From the IMG/VR virus record IMGVR_UViG_3300029577_000220, positions 1 to 11,007 of that record: a stretch of 11,007 nt of DNA. One strand, given 5' to 3'. Below are positions 1 through 11,007 of this stretch, piece after piece. The stretch comes from a virus (lineage: Duplodnaviria; Heunggongvirae; Uroviricota; Caudoviricetes). The position numbers were made by a program, and so were the translations under genes. Under the pieces are notes generated by a model, which had not been told where the DNA came from, did no database searches, and saw nothing but the letters and a program-made list of their open reading frames with translations. The stretch's first letter is position 1, and every line of letters begins with the position of its first letter.

Positions 1-1505
1 TGGTCTCTCATCCTTCTCCACTGCTGTACAAAATATAGTCTTAGCGTGGGATAATTTCCGTTTTCCAAGCGGACCCCTTTTTGTCCTCCATTCGCCCTGC
101 AAACAGGGTAGCCAGTTGGCCGATAATCAGAAGGTGAGACGCTCATAAGCTCTTTGCTGATGGTGGCCGACAGTGCGTCTTCGGTCATTTCACCGATTCC
201 GTCTTCCATCTCGTCGAGCGCCTTTAGCGCCTCCTCCAGAGTCATTTCATCCGGCGCAGGAACAAAGCCAGACTCACTGTCTTTGGGCACTTCCGCACCA
301 TCTTTATTTTCTTTGCCTTCGACGTCTTCTTCAGTTTCCCCACGATCAGTATCGGAGTCCTCACCGCCATCACCATCGATGCCAGAGCCATAACCATCAG
401 AATCATCGGTATCTTCGCGAATACCATCGCCAGGTCTTGGAGCGCCAGTGCCATTGCTGCCATCATCATCGGTGTCAGAGTCACTTGATTTCATGCCGAT
501 AGCATCGGATTCTGGGGTGTCTCCTGACTCTTCGTGGCCTGCTTCTGTATATTTACTTTCTGTATCACTAATATCTTTAACGTGTGTAGGTAAGTCCTTA
601 TCTAATGAATCAGGCAAATCGGAATCCCCAGAATCTTCCTCTTCTGATGCATCATCTTCTCGTTCTTCCTTGTCATCGCCTTCGCCTTTGGCAGGCTTAG
701 ATGCAGAGTCACCATGAGACGGCTCGTCACCTGATTCTGGCGTTTCCTCGGACTCGTCTTTGCTCTCCGACGGCTTTCTGGCAGATGATTTAAGTTCTGG
801 TAATTTGCCCTCTGGCTTGTCTTTCATATCCTGCATGATTTGGGCTATAGCAGCAGCGACCTTCACGCAATCCTCAGTGTTCGACATATTGCGAACGGCC
901 ACGTCTATACCATGCTCCTTTAGTAAGGCTACCGGCCTCTCGATAAGGCGCCAGTGTTCTTCCATAAAATCGATGAAGGGGCTTTGTCCATCCCAGGCGC
1001 GGACGACCGGGCAAAGGAAGAATTTCAAAAACAATTCACGCTGGTCTCCGTGACAGGCTAAAACCGCTTCTGGTACTTTATTCCTGAAGTATTTGTCGAT
1101 AACCAGACTCTGTGTTGCAAGTAAATTACGCCGGGTTCCGTTAAAGACCTGCCCCATTCTGCGTTCAATAAAAACGTCTTCCAGCGCATTCCAAAGCCCC
1201 GTAGACGGAGCCTTTCCTCTTTCGCGCATCTGCATTGCGACTTTCGGTTCAGTAAAGAGAATATGGGCCACCTCATGGTCGAGAAAACCACGCACTGCGT
1301 TCATGAGGGTTGGCGACGCGTCGTCCGGTATAGATGGGATGTTTACCAGCACTGGTTCGCCGCGCCGGTTATAGCGGACATATGCTTCATTGCCTCGTTC
1401 TGCAACAGGTATTTGTTTACCTGAAAGCATCGCTACAACTCGTTTTACACAGTCGCGAAAATCCTGCACCTCTTTCAGTACAGCTTTGGTGGTTTTTTTG
1501 GACAT
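1..1505 (-). CDS. Large protein with N-terminal globular region followed by a ~200-aa D/E/S/G-rich acidic low-complexity linker; architecture resembles CobT-like (cobaltochelatase CobT / vWA-associated) proteins. Start ATG at 1503-1505; 3' end lies beyond the window start, so ~501 codons are in the window.
   Basis: Minus-strand frame set by ATG 1503-1505 is open to position 3 (translated by hand at both ends: MSKKTTKAVLKEVQDFRDCVKRVVAMLSGKQIPVAERGNEAY ... SPSDYRPTGYPVCRANGGQKGVRLENGNYPTLRLYFVQQWRRMRD). AAGGGA Shine-Dalgarno-like sequence ~8 nt upstream of the ATG. The Ser-rich plus-strand ORFs in the track (154..717) are antisense shadows of the acidic repeat region. Family assignment is from architecture only. 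Confidence 0.6.
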   Translation of the reverse strand, partial: MSKKTTKAVLKEVQDFRDCVKRVVAMLSGKQIPVAERGNEAYVRYNRRGEPVLVNIPSIPDDASPTLMNAVRGFLDHEVAHILFTEPKVAMQMRERGKAPSTGLWNALEDVFIERRMGQVFNGTRRNLLATQSLVIDKYFRNKVPEAVLACHGDQRELFLKFFLCPVVRAWDGQSPFIDFMEEHWRLIERPVALLKEHGIDVAVRNMSNTEDCVKVAAAIAQIMQDMKDKPEGKLPELKSSARKPSESKDESEETPESGDEPSHGDSASKPAKGEGDDKEEREDDASEEEDSGDSDLPDSLDKDLPTHVKDISDTESKYTEAGHEESGDTPESDAIGMKSSDSDTDDDGSNGTGAPRPGDGIREDTDDSDGYGSGIDGDGGEDSDTDRGETEEDVEGKENKDGAEVPKDSESGFVPAPDEMTLEEALKALDEMEDGIGEMTEDALSATISKELMSVSPSDYRPTGYPVCRANGGQKGVRLENGNYPTLRLYFVQQWRRMRD

Positions 1506-1558
1506 TAGAATTCCCTTGTTGTTAAAACAATTTGTTTTCTGATGTGCGTAATTTATCA

Positions 1559-1591
1559 CTGTACGAACAGGCATCTAATCTGTTCGTACAG
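1559..1591. promoter_or_regulatory. Perfect 12-bp inverted repeat CTGTACGAACAG-N9-CTGTTCGTACAG in the 5' leader/promoter region of the 1..1505 gene; candidate operator or leader stem-loop.
   Basis: Arms 1559-1570 and 1580-1591 are exact reverse complements; located 54 bp upstream of the start codon at 1505. Confidence 0.4.
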
Positions 1592-1605
1592 GCGCTAGAG
1601 AGGAT

Positions 1606-1618
1606 GGGAGGGGGGGGG
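1606..1618. repeat. Homopolymeric G tract (GGGAG followed by 8 G) between the stop of the 1619..1831 ORF and the start of the 1..1505 gene.
   Basis: Direct reading of 1601-1620: aggatgggag ggggggggtt. Confidence 0.6.
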
Positions 1619-1831
1619 TTAAATTGTGCGGACGGCTACTGAACCGCAGCCGGTATTGATGAGAGTGAAGCACTTGCCCTTTAGCTCAAAGATGTATGCG
1701 GTTGCGTCTTTCATGTCAAGTAACAAAGACTTTGTTGGCAGTTCAGTGAGTATGGCTGCTGCCCCATCATCGTCAATTGAAATCGTATGTCCGACCTCAA
1801 GGGCGATCAAATTAGAAGTTATTTTTTTCAT
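1619..1831 (-). CDS. Hypothetical small protein (70 aa), divergent from the HTH regulator gene.
   Basis: ATG at 1829-1831 (minus), weak GGATGA SD-like sequence upstream; shares a 247-bp AT-rich divergent intergenic region with the 2088..2477 gene. No recognisable domain. Confidence 0.3.
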   Translation of the reverse strand: MKKITSNLIALEVGHTISIDDDGAAAILTELPTKSLLLDMKDATAYIFELKGKCFTLINTGCGSVAVRTI

Positions 1832-2087
1832 TTCATATCATCCAACTGAACACGTAAATACCTTGCAATACTACTACCTATTGTATCAATACGGAATACT
1901 TATGTATCAAATACAACTTAGTTTTAAGTTCTTAAATGAGTTATTTTTTAGATAGTTGTCTATTAATGAAGCCTTTTGCGGTCAGTAAACCTATGTAAAA
2001 AAATAGATAAGTCTTTACAACACTAACCTTTGATGTAATATCAGTAAGCACTTACCAAATAAAATCAAAACACGCAGGTTGATAATT

Positions 2088-2477
2088 ATGGCTACCAACG
2101 AAACAAAAGAAGCTAAAGTAAGTCGCTACGCTGCTTACATTGACGCTTTAATCGCGATTTCTCCGAAAAGCCAGGCGACCATCGCGAAAGAAGCAGGCTA
2201 TAAAAACCCTAACAATCTTTCACTTATCAAGAGCGGCAAAATCCCGCTTCCGATCGACAAGGTCAGAGCGTTGGCTAAAGCATTGGATGCCGATTCGGTC
2301 CGATTGATGCTAATGGTGCTGGAAGAGCGTCATCCAGAGCTGTTAGCGTTTTTTCGCGACGAAGGCACAGCCCCTCTGACTAAAGATGAAAAACTAGTTC
2401 TGGAAGCCTTCCGTCGACGTTTCGGTGACCAACGTGGTGCGTCGGAGCGGGTTGTTGAGGCAATCAAGTCGCTATGA
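2088..2477 (+). CDS. XRE/Cro-CI-type helix-turn-helix transcriptional regulator (129 aa from ATG 2088; the track ORF begins at an upstream in-frame TTG at 2079).
   Basis: HTH_3-like segment SQATIAKEAGYKNPNNLSLIKSGKIPLPIDKVRALAKALDAD; AGGT ~9 nt upstream of ATG 2088; AT-rich upstream region; convergent with the integrase and overlapping its 3' end by 6 bp. Confidence 0.65.
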   Translation: MATNETKEAKVSRYAAYIDALIAISPKSQATIAKEAGYKNPNNLSLIKSGKIPLPIDKVRALAKALDADSVRLMLMVLEERHPELLAFFRDEGTAPLTKDEKLVLEAFRRRFGDQRGASERVVEAIKSL

Positions 2478-3575
2478 GAAATTTACACGGATTAGCTCAG
2501 TAGCGAGTCGATCTCCCTTGAACTTATGATCTATCTCCTCTAAATCCTGTTTCTCTACGATTGATGCGATGTACGCCGAAAAACTGTTTAAGGCGTCTCG
2601 CATCTCGTCTATATAATCGTGTCGATCGTATACTCGATCTATCCCCTCAAGACTGTGGTTCATAATTTTGCGGGATACCTCCTGACTTATGCCTAACGCG
2701 GGGAAGTAACTACGCGCAGTACGACGCAAATCTCGGGGAGTAAATGGCTCAAGCTCCATCAACTCTGGACGTTCTAAAATCCTTCTCAACGCCTGTGATA
2801 TGGCCACCTTAGACATTGGCACATCCTCACCCTGTTTCTTGTTTGAAGGAACAAGCCACTGGCTGCCTTTTCCGTATTTGATCAGCTCCTCAACACATTT
2901 GCGCATTAGCGGGCTTAATGGTAACGAGTGCTGGCGAGCCGATTTATTCCTCGTTCCTTGATTCCATAAATTATATTCGAGGTTGAATTCTGATCTTTTA
3001 GCTCGGAGCACTTCATCTGGTCGTCTGGCCGCTACAAGGCATAATCTGGCCGCCCACTTTGTACCCTCACATACGTTGAAGTAGTCCCATACATTCCAAA
3101 AGACCCAGACCTCTGCGTCGGTCAGTTTGCGCTCGCGCGGCGTGGGCTTCGCGCCACCGGCTACTCTGTTAAGCGACATATCGTTCAATGGGGATGTATC
3201 AATTAAGCCCTGAAATGCACACCAACTGAGAAACTGCTTCATCAGCGAGAACACACGTCTGCCCTGGACGATCTTGCCCTCAAGTATTAATGGGTTCACC
3301 AGCTGGTTGACTAAAACCCTACTAATATCACTTACTTTTACTTCACAGATATGCGGCATTACATGTATCAAAATACAATGAACAGCTATTTCAGGTCGAC
3401 GTCTCGTTATCAGCAAAGATAAGCGAGTGAATAACATGAATGCGGAAGAAAACGACATATCACCGTCGAAATTGGTGGTCGACACTGCTGACAAACCGGA
3501 AGCGCGTTCGAGATACTCGATGGCTTCTCTAGAGGTGTTTTCTGCTGCGCGTGCTTTATCAAAAGTGTTTTTCAT
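2472..3575 (-). CDS. int: Tyrosine recombinase/integrase, P4-like family, lacking the N-terminal arm-binding (DUF4102-type) domain; possibly a truncated remnant.
   Basis: C-terminal catalytic region FTPRDLRRTARSYFPALGISQEVSRKIMNHSLEGIDRVYDRHDYID matches the integrase box II / R..Y architecture; core-binding region ISRVLVNQLVNPLILEGKIVQGRRVFSLMKQFLSWCAFQGLID matches the P4-integrase core-binding pattern. The region upstream of 3575 (3576-3874) is AT-rich and non-coding, so no arm-binding domain is encoded. Confidence 0.85.
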   Translation of the reverse strand: MKNTFDKARAAENTSREAIEYLERASGLSAVSTTNFDGDMSFSSAFMLFTRLSLLITRRRPEIAVHCILIHVMPHICEVKVSDISRVLVNQLVNPLILEGKIVQGRRVFSLMKQFLSWCAFQGLIDTSPLNDMSLNRVAGGAKPTPRERKLTDAEVWVFWNVWDYFNVCEGTKWAARLCLVAARRPDEVLRAKRSEFNLEYNLWNQGTRNKSARQHSLPLSPLMRKCVEELIKYGKGSQWLVPSNKKQGEDVPMSKVAISQALRRILERPELMELEPFTPRDLRRTARSYFPALGISQEVSRKIMNHSLEGIDRVYDRHDYIDEMRDALNSFSAYIASIVEKQDLEEIDHKFKGDRLATELIRVNFS

Positions 3576-3672
3576 AGTCCACTCACTGAGTGAAGCCTGT
3601 TTTTACTGTATTTATAAACAGTATGTTAGGCCTAAGTTTTGTATGATCAACAGTAAAATAGACTGTTTTTGA

Positions 3673-3707
3673 AAATGATTCCATACCTTACAAGTATGGA
3701 ATCATTT
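3673..3707. promoter_or_regulatory. Perfect 14-bp inverted repeat AAATGATTCCATAC-N7-GTATGGAATCATTT in the integrase upstream region; candidate operator/recombinase-binding site.
   Basis: Arms 3673-3686 and 3694-3707 are exact reverse complements; the arm core GTATGGAATCAT recurs at 5326-5337 and 6346-6357. Confidence 0.45.
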
Positions 3708-3874
3708 ATATAGCTTACGTAAATTCTGAATAAATTATGTAGACAAACCATCTTAAACGCTAAATAGTAAAAAGCGCCTAATAACGCCAACTTTGGAATG
3801 CCATCTGAGCCAGATTGATGAGAATGATTTGTTAGAAGAAAAAGAATGATGAAGAAGATGACGATCGCTAAAGT

Positions 3875-4291
3875 TCAGCTAGAATGGAAACCTTCTGCGA
3901 CTTCAGCGAAGTAGCTGAGCAACCTAGTATCTCTTGCTGGCATACGATCGTGAGCTGGAGTGACTAGCCCCATCAGCAAAAAACGCCCGCTATCCCACAT
4001 GTGCTCGGTATAAACGAGATAGTGGTTTGAGGTTCGGTTGTAGTTCTCTTGCCTTGCGTTCCAGGTAAGCTGGAAATGCAAATTGACGTGAATATGCTGG
4101 ACATTAGCATCAACGGCGAACGGCGGGAAGTCAAATGGCGCATCTCGTCCAAGAAGATTAGATGGTGCGCCAGTTGATTTGTAAGTAATGAACTCGGATT
4201 TGAGCTGACTTTCTAGGTCAGGGTAAACGACAAAAGTGGGCTGAAAAAAATCATCCCACGTAACTTGACTGTATTCAGCCGTTAATGCCAT
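3875..4291 (-). CDS. YafO-family toxin (ribosome-dependent mRNA interferase type), 138 aa.
   Basis: Block-wise resemblance to E. coli YafO recalled from memory: FITYKSTGAPSNLLGRDAPFDF vs FISYKRDGVLPDIFGRDALYDD; VQHIHV vs VAHIHL; RTSNHYLVYTE vs RTNDEAHLVYCQ; FLLMGLVTPAHDRMPARD vs WLLIAILKPEPHKLARD; AEGF vs AEAF. Start ATG 4289-4291 overlaps the upstream gene's last codons by 10 nt. Confidence 0.7.
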   Translation of the reverse strand: MALTAEYSQVTWDDFFQPTFVVYPDLESQLKSEFITYKSTGAPSNLLGRDAPFDFPPFAVDANVQHIHVNLHFQLTWNARQENYNRTSNHYLVYTEHMWDSGRFLLMGLVTPAHDRMPARDTRLLSYFAEVAEGFHSS

Positions 4292-4830
4292 TTAGCCGCA
4301 GCCTTGTTGCCAGTCTCTAATAGATGGTTCATGGCTAAAAGGTTGACACCAGAGTCACGCACTACAGAAGTGCGTGTAATCTGATCAATCAGATTGAGAT
4401 AGTTTTTGGTCGCAATACTGACCATTTTAATAGCCTTAAAAAACGCAAACTCAACAGTGTTTTTTTCGTAAGACATGATGACGTCTTTTTCAGGTAACAT
4501 CAAAACAAAAGATTCTGCGATACCGGCTACATGAATAGTTTGATTCTTAATTTCTTCCGCTACTTTGATAGCAGCAAAGAAGTCAGTGTCAGCATAATGA
4601 GCAAGTTCAGCGCGGCTTGAACGCAGTTCTTTAGCCAATTCATTGAGAGCAGCTGTAAGATCACTGATGTCGGTTTTGTTGACTCTAGCGCCCATCTCAT
4701 AAACCCGTTCTACAATCGTAGGCTGACACGCAACCGCTTTGGGTTGCGGCTGGATACTGGCAAGAACCAGTGCCACTGCTGCCTGCAAATGCTGGATTTT
4801 AAATTTCACGATAGACTCCATAATCGTCAT
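4282..4830 (-). CDS. Hypothetical 182-aa protein translationally coupled to the YafO-like toxin; putative cognate antitoxin/partner, not YafN/RelB-like.
   Basis: ORF with ATG at 4828-4830; stop TAA 4282-4284 overlaps the start of the YafO-like gene; no recognisable RelB/DinJ/YafN-like sequence and roughly twice the size of YafN. Confidence 0.6.
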   Translation of the reverse strand: MTIMESIVKFKIQHLQAAVALVLASIQPQPKAVACQPTIVERVYEMGARVNKTDISDLTAALNELAKELRSSRAELAHYADTDFFAAIKVAEEIKNQTIHVAGIAESFVLMLPEKDVIMSYEKNTVEFAFFKAIKMVSIATKNYLNLIDQITRTSVVRDSGVNLLAMNHLLETGNKAAAKWH

Positions 4831-4908
4831 TTCTCGACGAAGCGTAGCATTCTACTACTGAACTTAACTATAAGCTAAAAAAAGTTGGTTGCATATGCGA
4901 CTTGATAG

Positions 4909-4929
4909 CAAAAAGGGGCCGAAGCCCCT
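4909..4929 (-). terminator. Rho-independent terminator downstream of tRNA-Asn (minus-strand sense GGGGC-UUCG-GCCCC followed by UUUUU).
   Basis: Plus strand 4910-4932 aaaaaggggccgaagcccctttg: 5-bp GC stem, UUCG tetraloop on the minus strand, T-run on the minus strand (A-run 4910-4914 on plus). Confidence 0.55.
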
Positions 4930-5005
4930 TTGGATTTTGCGCTGAAAAAAGTGTTGCTACGATGCTTAGAAGCAATGGTTAAAAAACGTCTGCCGTGTCT
5001 ATCAC

Positions 5006-5080
5006 AGCGCTGAACGGTCTGGCGACATTTGCGGAGTCTTTCGTTCGGACGGTGGTGGCGAATCCAAACCGTTCAGCGCT
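5006..5080. other. Long hairpin: 13-bp perfect inverted repeat (AGCGCTGAACGGT / ACCGTTCAGCGCT) enclosing 49 nt, immediately 3' of the tRNA; possible structured RNA or degenerate tRNA-like element.
   Basis: Arms 5006-5018 and 5068-5080 are exact reverse complements; the enclosed sequence does not fold as a cloverleaf by hand. Confidence 0.35.
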
Positions 5081-5084
5081 ATGT

Positions 5085-5159
5085 TGGCGATGGTGGGTGG
5101 ACTCGAACCACCGACCAGTTGATTAACAGTCAACCGCTCTACCACTGAGCTACACCATC
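5085..5159 (-). tRNA. tRNA-Asn (anticodon GUU), 75 nt with encoded CCA.
   Basis: Minus-strand sequence GATGGTGTAGCTCAGTGGTAGAGCGGTTGACTGTTAATCAACTGGTCGGTGGTTCGAGTCCACCCACCATCGCCA folds by hand: acceptor GATGGTG/CACCATC, D-stem GCTC/GAGC, anticodon stem GTTGA/TCAAC with loop CTGTTAA, T-stem GGTGG/CCACC with loop TTCGAGT, discriminator G, CCA. Confidence 0.85.
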
Positions 5160-5408
5160 ATTTTCGCGGCGGTACTAGCTTATGGACAACCAGGCAGCCA
5201 GAAACTTTCCCGTAACTTGCACTTTACGTTAGTGCCAGACGAGGTATGTGGCTCGCTCATATGAGCGAAGATCTCGAATCTTTCTCGGTGGTTGATTGCC
5301 GTTAGATTCTTCGATCTTATTGGATGTATGGAATCATACATGTTGTGAAGCCAGGGGCAATAAAGGCAACAATGTTTTCACTAGAGGGTTAATTAATCCT
5401 GCTTTCAC

Positions 5409-5518
5409 AACGTTGAGATCACTGAACCGATTAATGTTCAACCCAACATATTGATCAGTCGCTACAGCTATGTGGAATCGCCTGTATGATTTTAAGAAAA
5501 ATCAGTGATCTCAACGTT
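5409..5518. repeat. 17-bp perfect inverted repeat (AACGTTGAGATCACTGA ... TCAGTGATCTCAACGTT) separated by 76 bp in the non-coding region between the tRNA and the small-gene cluster; candidate structured ncRNA, origin-like element or MITE-like remnant.
   Basis: Arms 5409-5425 and 5502-5518 are exact reverse complements; no convincing ORF in 5160-5900. Confidence 0.4.
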
Positions 5519-5883
5519 ATGTGCTGACTAACCAAGTCAGCCGGGTTACGTCGCCGCTTTTAACCCAAGTATAAACGACATAAGTAATGGAAATGACGTA
5601 ACAGAATGGACGGTCAGCTGAAACCGGGATGGGTGAATGGAATGATGAAACCAACCGCCCATTCTGTTACTTCATTGAATGGGGCATGGATGGTGCAATA
5701 TGCCCTATTCTGCGTTCTGCAATCACACTCGCTCAGTGTGTCCCATTTTGGTGACGAGGCTGGAAACTGACCTCGCTGGTGTTTGGCTTCTTAGGCTACT
5801 GCCAGGTATGCATCTTCGTTTGCAGTTATATTTAACGTTCAAACAGTCGCATCTCAACGAAAACAAAGTGATCTTATACATAT

Positions 5884-5909
5884 TAGATAAGTAAGTAAAT
5901 ACTTATCTA
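5884..5909. promoter_or_regulatory. Palindromic site TAGATAAGTA-AGTAAA-TACTTATCTA overlapping the stop of the 5903..6208 gene; shares the 11-mer ATAAGTAAGTA with sites at 10811-10821 and 8582-8592 (reverse complement).
   Basis: 10-bp arms 5884-5893 and 5900-5909 are reverse complements; the 11-mer recurs at two other loci, both 5' of minus-strand genes. Confidence 0.4.
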
Positions 5910-6208
5910 TCTGTGATGCGTTTAGTTGCTATCTTTTTGATCAGGCTCCCCTTTTGTTCCGAAGTTCTCATGATGATGGCGGTAAAACGCTTCGCTTGAA
6001 TAGTGATAGTTTCGTTTTCCTTGAGTTCGCCGTAATGCGTCTCTAACAGGGACCCCAGACGCCACAGACCGTCGTCTATGCGTTTATGGCTGGCGAATCT
6101 GATCAGCAGTAGCTTTACGATTAACTGACCAATGTAAAAGGCAAATCCGAAGCCGGCCGCCACAAGGTAGGTTGCCAGCCACCAGTCGAAGGAAGTCAAA
6201 TTGCTCAT
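5903..6208 (-). CDS. Hypothetical small membrane protein (101 aa).
   Basis: ORF with ATG 6206-6208; hydrophobic segment WWLATYLVAAGFGFAFYIGQLIVKLLLI; start overlaps the stop of the upstream 50-aa ORF (ATGA). Confidence 0.5.
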   Translation of the reverse strand: MSNLTSFDWWLATYLVAAGFGFAFYIGQLIVKLLLIRFASHKRIDDGLWRLGSLLETHYGELKENETITIQAKRFTAIIMRTSEQKGSLIKKIATKRITDR

Positions 6209-6357
6209 TTTCGCACTCCCGTCTCGTGAACAACCCGATACACACGCTTACCGACACGAAGTGTTTTGGTTTGCAGTTCCTGCTGGACCAGGGCGCGGCA
6301 GATTGCGAGGCCGAGGCCCACGCCACCAGTAAAAGATAAAATGATGTATGGAATCAT
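6205..6357 (-). CDS. Hypothetical 50-aa protein with a hydrophobic N-terminus (MIPYIILSFTGGVGLGLAICRALVQQ...); not in the supplied ORF track (below the size cutoff).
   Basis: Hand translation: ATG at 6355-6357 overlaps the TGA of the 6357..6569 gene (TGATG), and its own TGA (6205-6207) overlaps the ATG of the 5903..6208 gene (ATGA). Confidence 0.3.
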   Translation of the reverse strand: MIPYIILSFTGGVGLGLAICRALVQQELQTKTLRVGKRVYRVVHETGVRK

Positions 6358-6569
6358 CAGTGCGCCCCCGCCTCAGTCAATTGCTGCAACAACAAATAAC
6401 CTTTTTCAGTCAGTTGATAGTTCTCAATACATCCCTTTGGAGAAACGTTGGCGACAAGATTCATGCGCTCCAGTTTGGCTCTGGTCTTCGGCTTCCAGTT
6501 GGCGTAGAACTCCTTCCACTTGCTGATTTCACGCAGGGTTTCCTTCTCTCGTTTACTTAACATGCTCAT
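6357..6569 (-). CDS. Hypothetical small soluble protein (70 aa), Lys/Glu-rich, possibly DNA-binding.
   Basis: ORF with ATG 6567-6569; embedded in the overlapping gene chain downstream of the ligase. Confidence 0.45.
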   Translation of the reverse strand: MSMLSKREKETLREISKWKEFYANWKPKTRAKLERMNLVANVSPKGCIENYQLTEKGYLLLQQLTEAGAH

Positions 6570-6729
6570 CCTTAATCTCCTTCAGTGTGTCCGTGATATC
6601 TACTATGCGATAAATACGACCTCGCCTTTGCATGACACCGGCTTTTACGTAATCGTGGATACAGCTGGACATAACCAGACTTCCGATAACAATGCCGACG
6701 ACTAAAAATACAAACATCCAGCCGAGCAT
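6553..6729 (-). CDS. Hypothetical 58-aa protein with an N-terminal transmembrane helix (MLGWMFVFLVVGIVIGSLVM...); not in the supplied ORF track.
   Basis: Hand translation: ATG at 6727-6729 shares one base with the ligase stop codon (TGATG); TAA at 6553-6555 lies inside the start of the next gene. Confidence 0.3.
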   Translation of the reverse strand: MLGWMFVFLVVGIVIGSLVMSSCIHDYVKAGVMQRRGRIYRIVDITDTLKEIKDEHVK

Positions 6730-8051
6730 CATTCTTTATCTCCAATACGATCTTCGGTATCTCGAAGACATTTAGGCCACTTCAGACGTGGATGACGCAA
6801 GCTACCATCTGGCGTTTTCTCATGGCAGTGAACCTCAACGATGCGTCCACGATACTTCTCCTGATTGTTCCAGATTTCATCCAGGTATTTATGCTTGATA
6901 CCGCTGGCACGAACGATGACGCCGTTCTCCAGACGAATCACTATCTTGCCTAGCGTATGCGCAAATCCAGAATCCGGATCGCCAGGCTCGAAGTCGATGA
7001 TTTCACCGTCTTCTGAATCCTCGTCTTTCAGCTTCCACCAGCTGCGGGTACGTTTGAACTCGTAAACTGAATCCGGATCTTTGCCCATCTCTCCCTCTTC
7101 ATTCTCGTCCAGTCGCTTCATGAAACGTTCGATGAAATCTTCGTGGCTATGGATGATGTAGAACGGATGAAGGTGGATATCTTGCGCATAATCTTCCACG
7201 CAAGTGTTGCGGAACAACGCCACCAGCATAGCCAGGCGCTCTTTCAGCTTCATACCGGTCTTCAGGTACTCTTTGCTTTTTGCTTGAGCACGCCACTCCG
7301 GTAAGAAGAAATCGAAAATGTGGTAAACGGCACCAATGGCTTTCACGTTCTTCTTACGAAGCGCCGACACTGACTGGTTGAATGTACCTGCAGTGCCCTC
7401 TCCATCGAAGAAGATGTGATTGAAGCCGGAGAGTCTGCCCCGCTCCAGCATGGCTGGTTTAAGGTGATCGAGTGACGTAATCGGATTGCCGGTGCGCGTC
7501 AGGAAATTGACCTCACCCTCGTCCACGATGACTTCGCAGATAACCCGGAGACCATCGAGTTTGAGACTGCCGATCATTGGCCACTTGGCCTTTGGATTTG
7601 GTTTAAATGGGTATTTGTCGCCTTTCTCCTTGTACGGAGACGCCAGCTGTACCTCAAACTTCGGAATTGGGTTTTCGAACACCTTGTTGCACAGGCTGAT
7701 GCCGACACCGGCTTTCGGATCTTTCAGCAGGAAGCGACGAAACACGTCCTGCCCGTCAGCGCACATCGAGGCAACGAGTGATTCGACAGCAGCAATAGCG
7801 ATGTTCCCGGTCAGTTCGCGCGCTGCCAGCTTCTCCAGCAGATCTACTACCTTCTGGTCGCTGGGTACGGAAGTATCGAGTGGCTCGGCCACTTTGTACT
7901 TCTTCACACCGAATCGAATGAATGGATTGAGCATTAGCGAGACCATGCTCTGTTCAAATTCATCCAGATTGGCCAGCGCCTCTTTCTTGGCGTTGGTTCC
8001 CATCGTTTTAATAGCATCCAGCTTGTGCTTTAGGGCGATCAGTTTTTCCAT
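6729..8051 (-). CDS. ATP-dependent DNA ligase, T7-like (phage-type), 440 aa, with an ~80-aa N-terminal extension.
   Basis: Nucleotidyltransferase motif I KLDGLR; motif III FFDGEG; motifs IV-V EGEMGKDPDSVYEFKRTRSWWKLK (compare T7 ligase EGLIIKDP...SGWWKMK from memory); C-terminal motif VI TPDGSLRHPRL...RD. GGAGG Shine-Dalgarno 9 nt upstream of the ATG at 8051. Confidence 0.9.
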   Translation of the reverse strand: MEKLIALKHKLDAIKTMGTNAKKEALANLDEFEQSMVSLMLNPFIRFGVKKYKVAEPLDTSVPSDQKVVDLLEKLAARELTGNIAIAAVESLVASMCADGQDVFRRFLLKDPKAGVGISLCNKVFENPIPKFEVQLASPYKEKGDKYPFKPNPKAKWPMIGSLKLDGLRVICEVIVDEGEVNFLTRTGNPITSLDHLKPAMLERGRLSGFNHIFFDGEGTAGTFNQSVSALRKKNVKAIGAVYHIFDFFLPEWRAQAKSKEYLKTGMKLKERLAMLVALFRNTCVEDYAQDIHLHPFYIIHSHEDFIERFMKRLDENEEGEMGKDPDSVYEFKRTRSWWKLKDEDSEDGEIIDFEPGDPDSGFAHTLGKIVIRLENGVIVRASGIKHKYLDEIWNNQEKYRGRIVEVHCHEKTPDGSLRHPRLKWPKCLRDTEDRIGDKE

Positions 8052-8085
8052 TAGTGTTTAACCTCCATCGGTCGCTCGGGAGTTT

Positions 8086-8574
8086 TCATGTGTTTTCTTT
8101 GGTTGCTTCTTCAATGAGTGCCGCGTACACGTCAGTGACCGGCGCCAGTGAATCGGTGGGCTTGGTTTCGGATTTAGCAGGTTCTGTTTTCTTCGTGCGA
8201 TGAATAAGACTGTCAATTGTCGCGGTGTTTCGCTTCCGGGGGAGCGTTCTGGCATGGTCGTTTTGCTCTTCCACTTCTTTGATAAGTGAAGACATATCGA
8301 TGAAGTAGAGCTGTTCGTCTTTGCGGATCTCTTCGACCATCATTTTCAGTGCCTGACATTTACCAGCAGCAATAGCCGCAGCGCAGGACTGGAACGATGT
8401 AGCCGGGAGACGTTTTTCTTTATAGGCGAGGATCGTGTGTTGGCAGACTGTATAGCTGCAATGAGCCTCATGGCCGTTGAGCTTCACTTCCGGGCAGCGC
8501 AGCGAATAACCGTTGTTTCCGGAGATAGACGGGATTTTCGACAAATCTGTTCTTGTGGACATGCTTCTAACCAT
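8086..8574 (-). CDS. Hypothetical Cys/His-rich protein (162 aa), putative zinc-binding, immediately upstream of and co-oriented with the DNA ligase.
   Basis: ORF with ATG 8572-8574; segment CPEVKLNGHEAHCSYTVCQHT plus CAAAIAAGKC; 34-bp gap to the ligase start. Confidence 0.55.
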   Translation of the reverse strand: MVRSMSTRTDLSKIPSISGNNGYSLRCPEVKLNGHEAHCSYTVCQHTILAYKEKRLPATSFQSCAAAIAAGKCQALKMMVEEIRKDEQLYFIDMSSLIKEVEEQNDHARTLPRKRNTATIDSLIHRTKKTEPAKSETKPTDSLAPVTDVYAALIEEATKENT

Positions 8575-8599
8575 AATCTTGTACTTACTTATTAATCGC

Positions 8600-8627
8600 A
8601 GTTTAAAGAAGCCCCACGAGGGGGCTA
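8600..8627 (-). terminator. Candidate rho-independent terminator after the IS-interrupted gene (minus-strand AGCCCC-CUCGU-GGGGCU followed by a U-rich tail).
   Basis: Plus strand 8610-8626 agccccacgagggggct; the A-rich stretch on plus (8601-8609) gives UCUUUAAA on the minus strand. Confidence 0.4.
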
Positions 8628-8643
8628 AATGTTTTATCGAGGC

Positions 8644-9099
8644 TTACCAGGTCGCCCAGCCAGTCATTTTGTCCTGAGCAGCTTCGAACCGGTATGGGTC
8701 CAGTAAATCGTTGGTACGATGAACGGCGTAGGATTTGGCTTCTTGTTTAATCATGGGTAATTCGTTGGCCAGACGAGCCACTTGCCCTGCAAAACTGGCG
8801 AGTACTCCGTCACATGCCTGACCCACGTCGACAATGATGCGCACCAGGTCTAAGTCGCTGCGGCACATATCGCAGATAATGCCGTATTCCACCTCACGAA
8901 TGCGCTCAACGGCTTTTTTGATATCGCCACTGACCACCAATTCCAGCAAACCAGGTGGAGTTGTCAGATCTGTTACGCGCTCGGTAACTTCAGACTGTTC
9001 GACAATACTCAGGAACGCCGCGATGGACGGGTCATCCGCCACACCAGCTCTGACTTTGAGCGTGCGAAGAGTTGCGTCGACAATATCCTCAAACCGTTC
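8644..9099 (-). pseudogene. 3' portion (151 codons) of a ~270-codon gene interrupted by IS629; product unknown.
   Basis: The track ORF 8644..9042 (GTG start) extends in frame, with no stop, up to the IS boundary at 9099 (ERFEDIVDATLRTLKVRAGV ADDPSIAAF...). The frame is continuous with the fragment at 10410..10769 once the IS and one TTC copy are removed. Confidence 0.7.
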
Positions 9100-9153
9100 T
9101 GAACCGCCCCGGAAATCCTGGAGACTAAACTCCCTGAGAAAGAGGTAAACAGG

Positions 9154-9480
9154 ATGACTAAAAATACTCGTTTTTCCCCCGAAGTCCGTCAGCGGGCGAT
9201 TCGTATGGTTCTGGAAAGTCAGGATGAATATGACTCACAGTGGGCGGCAATTTGTTCCATTGCCCCAAAGATTGGCTGTACGCCGGAGACTCTGCGTGTC
9301 TGGGTTCGCCAGCATGAGCGGGATACCGGGGGCGGTGATGGTGGGCTCACCAGCGCTGAACGTCAGCGTCTGAAAGAGCTGGAACGTGAAAATCGTGAAC
9401 TGCGCCGCAGTAACGATATCCTTCGCCAGGCTTCCGCTTATTTTGCGAAGGCGGAGTTCGACCGCCTCTGGAAAAAATGA
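9154..9480 (+). CDS. IS629 transposase OrfA (HTH and leucine-zipper part), 108 aa.
   Basis: [23 protein letters not shown]... is typical of IS629/IS1203-group OrfA; ends ...LWKK* at the A6 run 9472-9477, the expected -1 frameshift window. Confidence 0.9.
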
Positions 9481-10367
9481 TGCCACTGCTGGATAAGCTG
9501 CGTGAGCAGTACGGGGTCGGACCGGTATGCAGCGAACTGCATATTGCCCCGTCAACGTATTACCATTGTCAGCAACAGCGACATCATCCGGATAAACGCA
9601 GTGCCCGTGCGCAGCACGACGACTGGCTGAAGAGAGAGATACAGCGCGTATACGATGAAAATCATCAGGTGTACGGTGTGCGTAAAGTCTGGCGTCAGTT
9701 GTTACGGGAAGGAATCAGGGTGGCCAGATGTACAGTGGCACGTCTCATGGCGGTTATGGGACTTGCCGGTGTTCTCCGGGGTAAAAAGGTCCGTACGACC
9801 ATCAGCCGGAAAGCCGTTGCCGCAGGCGACCGCGTAAACCGTCAGTTCGTGGCAGAACGACCTGACCAGCTGTGGGTGGCTGATTTTACTTACGTCAGCA
9901 CATGGCAGGGCTTCGTCTATGTGGCGTTTATCATTGATGTGTTTGCCGGATACATCGTGGGGTGGCGGGTCTCATCGTCTATGGAAACGACATTCGTGCT
10001 GGATGCGCTGGAGCAGGCGTTGTGGGCCCGTCGTCCGTCTGGCACCATCCATCACAGCGATAAAGGCTCTCAGTATGTGTCACTGGCCTATACGGAGCGA
10101 CTAAAAGAAGCCGGATTACTGGCATCAACAGGGAGTACAGGCGACTCGTATGACAACGCGATGGCTGAGAGCATCAATGGTCTTTACAAAGCGGAGGTAA
10201 TACACCGTAAGAGCTGGAAAAACCGTGCAGAAGTGGAACTGGCCACACTAACGTGGGTGGACTGGTATAACAATCGACGATTGCTGGGAAGGCTGGGCCA
10301 TACTCCTCCGGCAGAAGCAGAAAAAGCTTATTATGCTTCCATCGGAAACGATGATCTGGCAGCCTGA
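9477..10367 (+). CDS. IS629 transposase OrfB (DDE/rve catalytic domain), 296 aa; expressed as an OrfAB fusion by -1 frameshifting.
   Basis: rve-type motifs [58 protein letters not shown]; overlaps orfA by 4 nt in the -1 frame. Confidence 0.9.
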
Positions 10368-10409
10368 GTTCACAGATAAAACACTCTCCAGGAAACCCGG
10401 GGCGGTTCA

Positions 10410-10769
10410 TTCACCTTCATCGCACACAGTCTGATTGGTGTAGACAGTCTGATTAGTGTAGACAATGCGACCGTCGTACCATGCACCGATACTCACTTCG
10501 ACCGTTGCGTCTTTCATCTCGCGAGAGAACGCCACAAGTGCCGCGCGTTTCTGCTTAACACCTGACAACTCCGGGGACTCTCCAAAACGAACCCAGACCT
10601 GCATGTATTTCGAGCCTTCCGAAAGAGGTACGGTGCTCACGGACGTGGCGATATGCTCCAGTGCAGTTTGGATCGCCTCGTCGATAATCTTCTGGCGCTC
10701 TTCTGTATCAATTTCTACGCCGGATTTGTCGATGATGTCGCAGACTAACTTCTGAAATTCTTCTTTCAT
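10410..10769 (-). pseudogene. 5' portion (120 codons) of the IS629-interrupted gene; its promoter and RBS are intact.
   Basis: ATG at 10767-10769 with AGGAG 7 nt upstream; the ORF runs into the IS629 right end, where it meets a stop supplied by the IS terminal TGA (10407-10409). Confidence 0.7.
10428..10463. repeat. 18-bp tandem duplication (AGTCTGATTGGTGTAGAC / AGTCTGATTAGTGTAGAC) inside the interrupted gene, encoding VYTNQT twice.
   Basis: Units 10428-10445 and 10446-10463 differ at one position; in frame. Confidence 0.6.
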
Positions 10770-10809
10770 AGCAACTCCTGACTAACAGATGAAAATATTC
10801 TTTCAGAAA

Positions 10810-10831
10810 AATAAGTAAGTATCTACTTATT
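10810..10831. promoter_or_regulatory. Palindromic site AATAAGTA-AGTATC-TACTTATT in the promoter region of the interrupted gene; same motif family as 5884-5909.
   Basis: 8-bp arms are reverse complements; contains the 11-mer ATAAGTAAGTA; ~40 bp upstream of the start at 10769. Confidence 0.4.
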
Positions 10832-10861
10832 ATATCGGGCACAATAGTCTGCTATACGAAG

Positions 10862-11007
10862 AAGCCAGGCGTAAAAACTACTCGGATGCACATCCAGCAC
10901 CCGACAAAGCAGTCGGACAGGCCAGCAATAGGTGTTGCATTGACAGATTGAATCTACAACGGCTTTTTTTAATATGTCCCGTTCGTCGGTAACCCGCTTC
11001 AGCTCTT
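10862..11007 (-). mobile_element. Fragment of a second, different IS3-family element (OrfA C-terminus to OrfB N-terminus junction region); continues beyond the right window edge; inner boundary uncertain (between ~10833 and ~10865).
   Basis: Minus-strand translation ELKRVTDERDILKKAVVDSICQCNTYCWPVRLLCRVLDVHPSSFYAW shows the OrfA-type ...ILKKA and the OrfB-type LCRVL.V..S.(Y/F).W motif (compare IS3 MCRVLRVARSGWYTW from memory); A7 run at 10964-10970 lies at the expected frameshift window. Not IS629 (sequence differs from the in-window copy). Confidence 0.45.

Follow-up and report, generated by a model that had tools for sequence, protein, structure and literature searches.

The question raised by this stretch of viral DNA is why one short sequence returns in it several times as an exact copy. 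The window, by which we mean the whole 11,007 nucleotides of the IMG/VR virus record IMGVR_UViG_3300029577_000220 (positions 1 to 11,007), contains the 12-mer GTATGGAATCAT at 3675-3686 on the minus strand and at 3694-3705, 5326-5337 and 6346-6357 on the plus strand, exactly where an initial annotation of the sequence had placed it. About 0.001 exact matches are expected in 2 x 11 kb, which agrees with the earlier judgement that chance recurrence is negligible; with up to two mismatches allowed, the window has 6 matches compared with a mean of 0.9 in shuffled sequences. The first two copies face each other in a palindrome (PAL, 3673-3707), which lies just upstream of a gene for a tyrosine recombinase (Int). 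Judged from sequence comparisons, the 12-mer is probably the DNA arm recognized by Int, with PAL as the core site and the single copies as extra binding sites.

The window comes from a phage-plasmid of E. coli that belongs to the SSU5-like group. Over 87% of its length it matches the plasmid pEC21Z137-115K (NZ_CP101235.1) with 99.7% identity, and its backbone is ~90% identical to that of Salmonella phage SSU5. In a search of the kind that the initial annotation had proposed, this near-identical 115-kb plasmid contained 5 exact copies of the 12-mer, compared with 0 in shuffled sequences, and no copy with exactly one mismatch. The fifth copy, called A, is located in dnaE, ~2.6 kb to the left of the window start and in the opposite orientation. 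It has the full 15-mer GATGTATGGAATCAT, which is also common to the two single copies of the window, B (5323-5337, plus strand) and C (6343-6357, plus strand), as had been noted for the latter two.

PAL consists of the arms ATGATTCCATAC (3675-3686) and GTATGGAATCAT (3694-3705), which flank a 7-bp spacer, CTTACAA (3687-3693); in this window the inverted match reaches 14 bp (3673-3686 and 3694-3707), as described previously. A scan of public collections with the pattern ATGATTCCATAC-N(3-20)-GTATGGAATCAT resulted in hits to 100 viral contigs and to contigs of Kluyvera, Chimaeribacter, Buttiauxella and Yersinia pestis. In the SSU5-like loci (>200) the arms are constant when oriented by int, and the spacing is 7 everywhere. 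Three scan matches had other spacings, and all three are unrelated long palindromes in metagenome-assembled genomes. The arms of 12 bp, or 14 bp in this window, are within the range of ~11-14 bp required of inverted recombinase arms. The spacer also has the properties of an overlap region, which should have a fixed length of 6-8 bp and a free sequence: it is 7 bp throughout and occurs in 13 variants. This combination of invariant arms and a drifting spacer is understandable because the arms would be bound while the overlap only has to match that of the partner copy. Constant arms around a free spacer would, however, also suit a dimeric operator, and we considered the alternative that PAL is purely regulatory, with the single copies as secondary operators and no recombination at PAL. 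The 12+7+12 layout speaks against this alternative, since it is the usual geometry of recombinase core sites.

In three independent pairs of lineages, the spacers are reverse complements of each other when oriented by int (TTGTAAG/CTTACAG, CTATTAA/TTAATAG and TTATATA/TATATAA). The flanks and both arms are unchanged at these inverted spacers (window 3687-3693; locus L007, 5795-5801; loci L015 and L064 compared with L009). It is possible that the inversions arose from template switching across the hairpin or from an unusual recombinase event.

The proposed binder, Int, is a protein of 367 aa encoded at 2472-3575 on the minus strand and assigned to the Pfam family Phage_integrase. PAL is found 45-100 bp upstream of its start codon in all loci, over a range of Int identities of ~58-100%; in this window the distance is 100 bp. 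A sequence search of Int against PDB structures gave no match. The AlphaFold2 model (pLDDT 84) is all-helical in its N-terminal half, and a Foldseek search with it returned the core of lambda Int, Tn1549 Int, XerH, IntI and Cre, as well as MrpR and YopR. The residues R185, K211, R284, H307 and Y316 are present and conserved, so that five of the six catalytic positions are kept. This is an argument against a purely regulatory role, since the nucleophilic Tyr, both Arg, the Lys and the second His are retained family-wide, unlike the situation in MrpR. The helical N-terminus of the model suggests that Int has no beta-type arm-binding domain, and neither PF13356 nor any other arm-binding domain was detected in it by a Pfam search. 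All copies of the motif have one sequence, with no arm-type sites distinct from core sites among them.

A further view of the relationship between Int and PAL was obtained from distant Int homologues, which were collected in a protein search and whose contigs were then examined. In Klebsiella phage-plasmids (Int identity 58%) the site reads GTGATTCCATAC-N7-GTATGGAATCAC. In phage-plasmids of Xenorhabdus and Providencia (45-46%) it reads (A/G)TGACTCCAGAC-N7-GTCTGGAGTCA(T/C), and the same altered site occurs on an Erwinia contig that is free of phage genes and on replicons of 507 kb in Pantoea and 722 kb in Rahnella (45-48%), the last two of which are probably megaplasmids. Across these homologues (45-58% overall) the arms are still separated by 7 bp, and the palindrome keeps its place directly upstream of int. 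Hence site and recombinase have changed together: three arm classes, ATGATTCCATAC, GTGATTCCATAC and RTGACTCCAGAC, track the divergence of Int. The sequence G-A-N-T-C is present in both arm classes, as GATTC or as GACTC, and its N is the place of one of the three differences that separate them. GANTC is the target of methyltransferases of the CcrM/HinfI type; its occurrence within the PAL arms is possibly coincidental.

The fact that Int and the palindrome are all that the Erwinia, Pantoea and Rahnella replicons have in common with the window also bears on which protein reads the site. No XRE gene, 70-aa gene or phage context is present beside Int and PAL on these replicons, which makes XRE, the 70-aa product and phage backbone proteins poor candidates for the reader. 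It likewise counts against a purely regulatory operator, because a stand-alone recombinase with its site makes sense on a non-phage replicon that lacks the backbone proteins. The initial annotation had suggested a binding site for either the XRE protein or the recombinase; our comparisons favour the recombinase and not the XRE protein, since PAL tracks Int even where there is no XRE gene. We also considered XRE from the side of its own gene, a 129-aa putative lysogeny repressor (2088-2477, plus strand) that is convergent with int, with a 6-bp overlap at 2472-2477 (PMC9928086). The divergent promoter region of this gene (1832-2087) contains no copy of the motif, and XRE was rejected as the binder.

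The promoter region of int (3604-3650, minus strand) contains a -35 element, TTGATC (3645-3650), and a -10 element, TAACAT (3623-3628); these hexamers (TTGATC-N16/17-TAAyAT) were read by eye from the alignment. A LexA box, TACTGTATTTATAAACAGTA (3604-3623, minus strand), overlaps the -10 element and the start site. This box matches at 18 of 20 positions and is the sole strong LexA box of the 115-kb plasmid. It is kept in lineages with an Int identity of at least ~80%, with the exception of L023 and L066 (CTGT to CTGG), and it is present in the Klebsiella lineage as well (Int 58%). A LexA box over the promoter suggests that in this clade most Int would be produced under SOS conditions. Ciprofloxacin induces Cyrano, a related phage-plasmid, 39-fold (PMC9928086). 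The XRE repressor gave no Pfam match, and with its small size this means that there is no sign in it of a self-cleaving peptidase domain. Transcription of int under SOS conditions would run antisense into the repressor gene, and this could be how the SOS response induces phage-plasmids of this kind.

The position of PAL relative to this promoter provides arguments on both sides of the operator question. A gap of 24 bp separates PAL from the downstream -35 element in most lineages, which is an unusual position for a repressor; in lineages with an Int identity of ~60%, it is 14 nt before a -10-like TATGCT and so overlaps the int promoter. An operator would need a binder, which could be Int in the role of a mere DNA-binding regulator, as in the case of MrpR or YopR, or another protein of the plasmid, for example the 70-aa product of the gene at 6357-6569. 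Repressors with a recombinase fold and dispersed sites do exist, the first catalytic His is replaced by Arg in Int, the annotation of the 6357-6569 homologue in Cyrano is that of a putative transcriptional regulator, and copy C overlaps the stop codon of that gene. Against these points stand the catalytic residues, the geometry and the non-phage replicons, and we regard a purely regulatory operator as unlikely.

The single copies A, B and C form the unusual part of the pattern. A second arm at a distance of 7 bp is absent from all three (1-3 of 12 positions match, compared by eye), which indicates that they are true half-sites. B is non-coding and lies ~165 bp upstream of the tRNA-Asn gene, 4 nt before a conserved inverted repeat. 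C forms, on the minus strand, codons 1-5 (MIPYI) of a 50-aa gene (6205-6357) and at the same time overlaps the stop codon of the 70-aa gene at 6357-6569. The positions of A, B and C are kept in all loci of the SSU5 clade that were examined. In dnaE the codons TGT-ATG-GAA-TCA are invariant in 36 distinct sequences, which were gathered via their flanks and not via the motif, and nearly every neighbouring degenerate codon varies synonymously. The corresponding residues, CMES, do not occur in distant dnaE proteins, in which the residues at this place are quite different. The 15-mer at C is fixed, apart from a single TAC-to-TAT change in one small group, while the following codons and the upstream ribosome-binding regions differ among lineages. 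Of 59 loci that were chosen via Int and not via B, 57 have an exact B, and conservation falls sharply outside the 15-mer; in SSU5, the sole int-less relative found, B has one mismatch. This pattern indicates that the half-sites are kept by selection on the DNA itself. In one IMG/VR contig (AGATGTATGAGATGTATGGAATCATTA) the dnaE half-site carries a 9-nt tandem duplication (RCM-RCMES) at its 5' edge.

These conservation data bear directly on two other proposals of the initial annotation, namely that the motif is a translation-initiation cassette, consisting of an ATG and the codons for MIPY, or that it is a recombination scar or local duplication. The annotation had correctly described the short frames MIPYIQ* at 5337 and MIPYL* at 3705 and the start of the 50-aa gene, which is conserved, at 6357. 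Every copy indeed includes an ATG, and the one at 6357 does serve as the start codon of a gene. C is nevertheless the only copy that starts a conserved gene. A is antisense in this respect, since it is GTATGGAATCAT that is read on the coding strand of dnaE, and the PAL copies start no gene, the frames that they open being 5 and 12 codons long. The N-terminus of the 50-aa protein outlasts the motif in the Klebsiella lineage, where IPYI is retained but the nucleotide sequence of C has decayed. A scar is in turn hard to reconcile with a position-stable motif under purifying selection: more than 100 diverged relatives have the copies at unchanged positions, contrary to the absence from relatives that the annotation had named as a refutation, and the copies are fixed at synonymous sites. 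Both proposals are therefore extremely unlikely, and the initial annotation is not upheld in this respect.

In the Klebsiella lineage A is absent. B reads ...CAC in 6 of the 6 loci where it was found, and this is the same change as in the PAL arms of that lineage. No half-sites were found within the 9-21 kb examined of the Xenorhabdus, Providencia, Erwinia, Pantoea and Rahnella loci, which indicates that Int and PAL are the older pair and that the half-sites were added to it later. In the SSU5 clade all single copies point toward PAL, A from the left and B and C from the right, with the two arms of PAL facing each other between them.

Orientation and co-variation made us consider whether the motif functions in RNA. 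With the genes here transcribed from the minus strand, C, B and the first PAL arm would read AUGAUUCCAUAC(AUC) in RNA, and the complement of these sense boxes, (GAU)GUAUGGAAUCAU, would be present in the second PAL arm and in the dnaE copy; the dnaE mRNA, or a plus-strand small RNA from B, could then pair with the start of the 50-aa gene and control its translation. Several features fit this scheme. A, B and C have the 15-mer in common, and at C it comprises exactly codons 1-5; conserved hairpins follow B after 4 nt on the plus strand, which is the layout of a small RNA with its seed first; the sense boxes are upstream and the antisense boxes downstream, as intramolecular pairing predicts; and the parallel change of B and the PAL arms preserves complementarity. 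However, over very wide divergence the PAL arms keep their sequence and not just their pairing, and they follow Int to replicons without the proposed targets. In most lineages PAL is also upstream of the start of int transcription. The Klebsiella lineage shows that the presumed partners do not co-evolve, because B and PAL persist there although C has decayed and A has disappeared. There is no convincing plus-strand promoter before B, and no Rfam family was matched at PAL or at B. We consider a function in RNA to be quite unlikely.

The motif could also be the core of a promoter, with xATGAT as a -10 element before a conserved start region and each copy marking a transcription start. A consensus scan indeed gives B the -10-like hexamer TATGAT and C the hexamer GATGAT, to which the -35 elements TTGCCC and TTGACT belong. 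The number of promoter-like matches is, however, not above the expectation from shuffled sequences, and the alignments, as we read them, show no conservation of the -35 elements between lineages. At PAL this explanation results in two promoters that face each other 7 bp apart, at C in a start site downstream of the gene's own ATG, and in dnaE in antisense transcription. A promoter function is thus very unlikely.

We return to the reading in which the 12-mer is the arm bound by Int. What the comparisons show directly is how the sites are built, how they are conserved and co-vary, and which genes surround them; that Int binds the arms, exchanges strands and resolves multimers, and that the half-sites have a role, is inferred. 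One Int protomer would sit on each arm of PAL, and strands would be exchanged across the 7-bp overlap, as in loxP, FRT and dif. The job of PAL would most likely be the resolution of plasmid multimers; the circularization of phage DNA is also conceivable. Multimer resolution is suggested because there is a single site per replicon, as seen on the 115-kb plasmid, because it lies beside the recombinase gene and because the pair is also carried by non-phage replicons, among them ordinary plasmids and probable megaplasmids. In a scan of 185,579 species genomes, the contigs with exact full sites were all between 11.8 and 169 kb long. Five of them have an int-side flank that is SSU5-like or related to it, and the scan gave in addition three long palindromes in metagenome-assembled genomes that are unrelated. 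No chromosomal attB matched in this exact-pattern scan, which did not search for imperfect attB sites. The confinement of exact full sites to plasmid-sized contigs favours multimer resolution over chromosomal integration. In loci with an identical Int-side flank and spacer, the far side changes right after the PAL arm, with at least 5 different cargo junctions; this fits with exchange at PAL. A, B and C are probably auxiliary sites at which unpaired arms bind Int monomers, and they may have a regulatory or architectural role. They could control adjacent genes, form loops that raise the local concentration of Int, or serve an architectural purpose. It is a rather doubtful extension of this idea that Int made in the SOS response also binds A, B and C, that is in the gene of the replicative polymerase, in the leader region of a tRNA and at the start of a gene for a small membrane protein. 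Int would then be a switch or an architectural organizer that contributes to moving the phage-plasmid from maintenance to lytic growth, and a catalytically competent recombinase would double as a regulator with dispersed sites.

Several observations weigh against a recombinase site with auxiliary arms. The first catalytic His of the family is an Arg (R281) in Int, and the activity of the protein is for this reason not certain. We looked for natural products of recombination between two PALs, in the form of two PALs in one record or locus or of a cointegrate junction, and found none. The change of cargo at PAL could also be the result of ordinary homologous recombination that is anchored on the conserved flanks. 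With regard to the half-sites, the 15-mer of A, B and C includes an extra ATC that the PAL arms do not have. The half-sites are 1.6-6 kb away from PAL and on both sides of it, and we know of no well-studied simple recombinase system that requires arms kilobases from its core site. Distant relatives do without them. Finally, the orientation of the copies and the co-variation of B are equally predicted by a model in which RNA or DNA copies pair with each other.

In comparison with known systems, most of the observation can be explained by a known kind of arrangement, a simple tyrosine-recombinase site that adjoins the gene of its recombinase. The closest parallel is Cre/loxP of P1, and similarly FLP/FRT and ResD/rfsF of F, in which a recombinase also lies beside a single site with inverted arms and a short asymmetric spacer. 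Like Cre/loxP, the pair described here is on a plasmid prophage and shows no sign of an arm-binding domain or an attB, and by analogy its role may be the same, multimer resolution or circularization. The systems differ in that the spacer is 7 bp instead of 8, the int promoter has a LexA box and the first catalytic His is an Arg; Cre has no detectable sequence similarity to Int and resembles it only at the level of the fold. The unusual part is the presence of oriented and strictly conserved half-sites in coding genes, and to our knowledge isolated arms in coding genes kilobases away have no counterpart in P1.

Single accessory copies of the same motif are known from TnpI/IRS of Tn4430, in which one recombinase binds identical motifs in an inverted core pair and in single accessory copies. 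The accessory repeats of Tn4430 are, however, within ~100 bp and on one side, while the single copies here are 1.6-6 kb distant on both sides. The promoter of IntI is under the control of LexA, and like int, the integrase gene of integrons has its site, attI, next to it, with variable cargo that starts at the site. Unlike in integrons, there are no attC-like repeats in the cargo, there is one PAL per locus, the site is a simple perfect palindrome, and the cargo genes point toward the recombinase and not away from it. The nearest classical relatives of Int by sequence are integrases of the P4/CP4-57 type, which target tRNA genes (24-31% identity in the alignment). The module described here also lies beside a tRNA gene, tRNA-Asn. 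In contrast to this type, Int lacks Arm-DNA-bind_3 (PF13356), PAL does not overlap the tRNA gene, the genome scan gave no exact full site on a chromosome, and the element is a plasmid. A recombinase-fold protein with dispersed sites is exemplified by MrpR, which binds the SPBRE repeat scattered over the genome of the Bacillus phage SPbeta (PMC10516654). MrpR (YopR) with SPBRE resembles the present case in that a recombinase fold is combined with a short element that is dispersed in the genome of a temperate phage, here as A, B, C and PAL. The difference is that MrpR has lost most catalytic residues and is itself the lysogeny repressor, while Int keeps five of six; int is under a LexA box with a separate XRE repressor, and two of the three single sites are in coding sequence and not in promoters.

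If our reading is correct, RTGAYTCCAKAC-N7-GTMTGGARTCAY defines a new family of lox-like sites, with natural spacer variants and a compact recombinase, and the pair could be useful in practice as an orthogonal tool for recombination. The reading would also explain how large phage-plasmids avoid the instability caused by multimers. A separate question is why single recombinase arms should be kept within coding genes, fixed at synonymous sites. SSU5-like phage-plasmids are very common in Enterobacteriaceae, with 549 records in PLSDB that match a backbone probe, and they are also reported to carry resistance genes (PMC9600943). A literature search found no description of a recombinase site or of an SOS input for SSU5-like phage-plasmids, and a search for the motif returned only unrelated primer or gene sequences.

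On the minus strand the genes of the window are arranged as follows: a CobT-like gene, which runs off the left window end and extends to 1507, a 70-aa gene (1619-1831), Int (with XRE before it on the plus strand), PAL, a YafO-family toxin (3875-4291, minus strand), its presumed antitoxin of 182 aa (4282-4830, minus strand) and tRNA-Asn (5085-5159, minus strand). Beyond tRNA-Asn there is a non-coding region of 740 bp with copy B, then genes for 101, 50, 70 and 59 aa and then a DNA ligase. The interval between PAL and tRNA-Asn is variable among relatives, and the tRNA gene is at the far end of this variable cargo region. In the plasmid NZ_CP010244.1 (L006, 5867-6361) the partner gene of the toxin alone remains, and in other relatives the interval contains glutaredoxin, PhoH, extra tRNAs or other genes. 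In Cyrano (L008, 4851-5405) the gene CYRAN_43, which is located just past PAL on the other strand, is reported at 723-fold above the local background in lysogens (PMC9928086); this level means that the PAL-distal side can be very actively transcribed.

SSU5 (L001, 4532-4541) lacks the 3.4 kb that correspond to positions 1636-5052 of the window, which comprise the 70-aa gene, XRE, Int, PAL and the toxin-antitoxin pair. We examined whether the motif could mark the att ends of an integrated island. The junctions with SSU5 bear a 7-bp microhomology, CGGACGG, and no motif, and this explanation was rejected. A probe that spans the SSU5 junction matched 549 PLSDB plasmid records, and 0 of the 549 cover the junction in one piece, which indicates that SSU5 carries a one-off deletion and that the window does not carry an insertion. 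The loss of the putative lysogeny repressor may be the reason for the lytic behaviour of SSU5.

Two degenerate copies of the motif were found in the window. Copy D, TTATGGAATCAA (2958-2969, minus strand), is within int and encodes L-W-N-Q; it varies across lineages and tracks the protein motif W-(N/R)-Q-G, and we rejected it as a functional copy since it is probably a coding coincidence. Copy B', TGGGTGAATGGAATGAT (5630-5646, plus strand), is identical to B at 14 of 17 positions, lies in the loop of a 23-nt inverted repeat and was seen in the closest relatives only. Compared by eye with a Fur box, a DnaA box and a downstream box, the motif showed in each case a poor resemblance.

The non-coding region at 5160-5905 contains three inverted repeats with arms of 20-23 nt (5342-5411, 5406-5521 and 5592-5676), and it gave weak, sub-threshold matches to tmRNA-like Rfam families (E 0.085-0.27). 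It may encode a structured RNA or act as an origin-like region. An IS629 element of the IS3 family, with the ALIL frameshifting pseudoknot at 9435-9551, is inserted at ~9100-10410; it is not in SSU5 nor at that position in most related plasmids. The proteins of 50 aa (6205-6357) and 59 aa (6553-6732) belong to PHROG families of unknown function and resemble paralogues by eye; both have an N-terminal hydrophobic helix, which is followed by R-x-G-(K/R)-(I/V)-Y-R-(I/V)-V.

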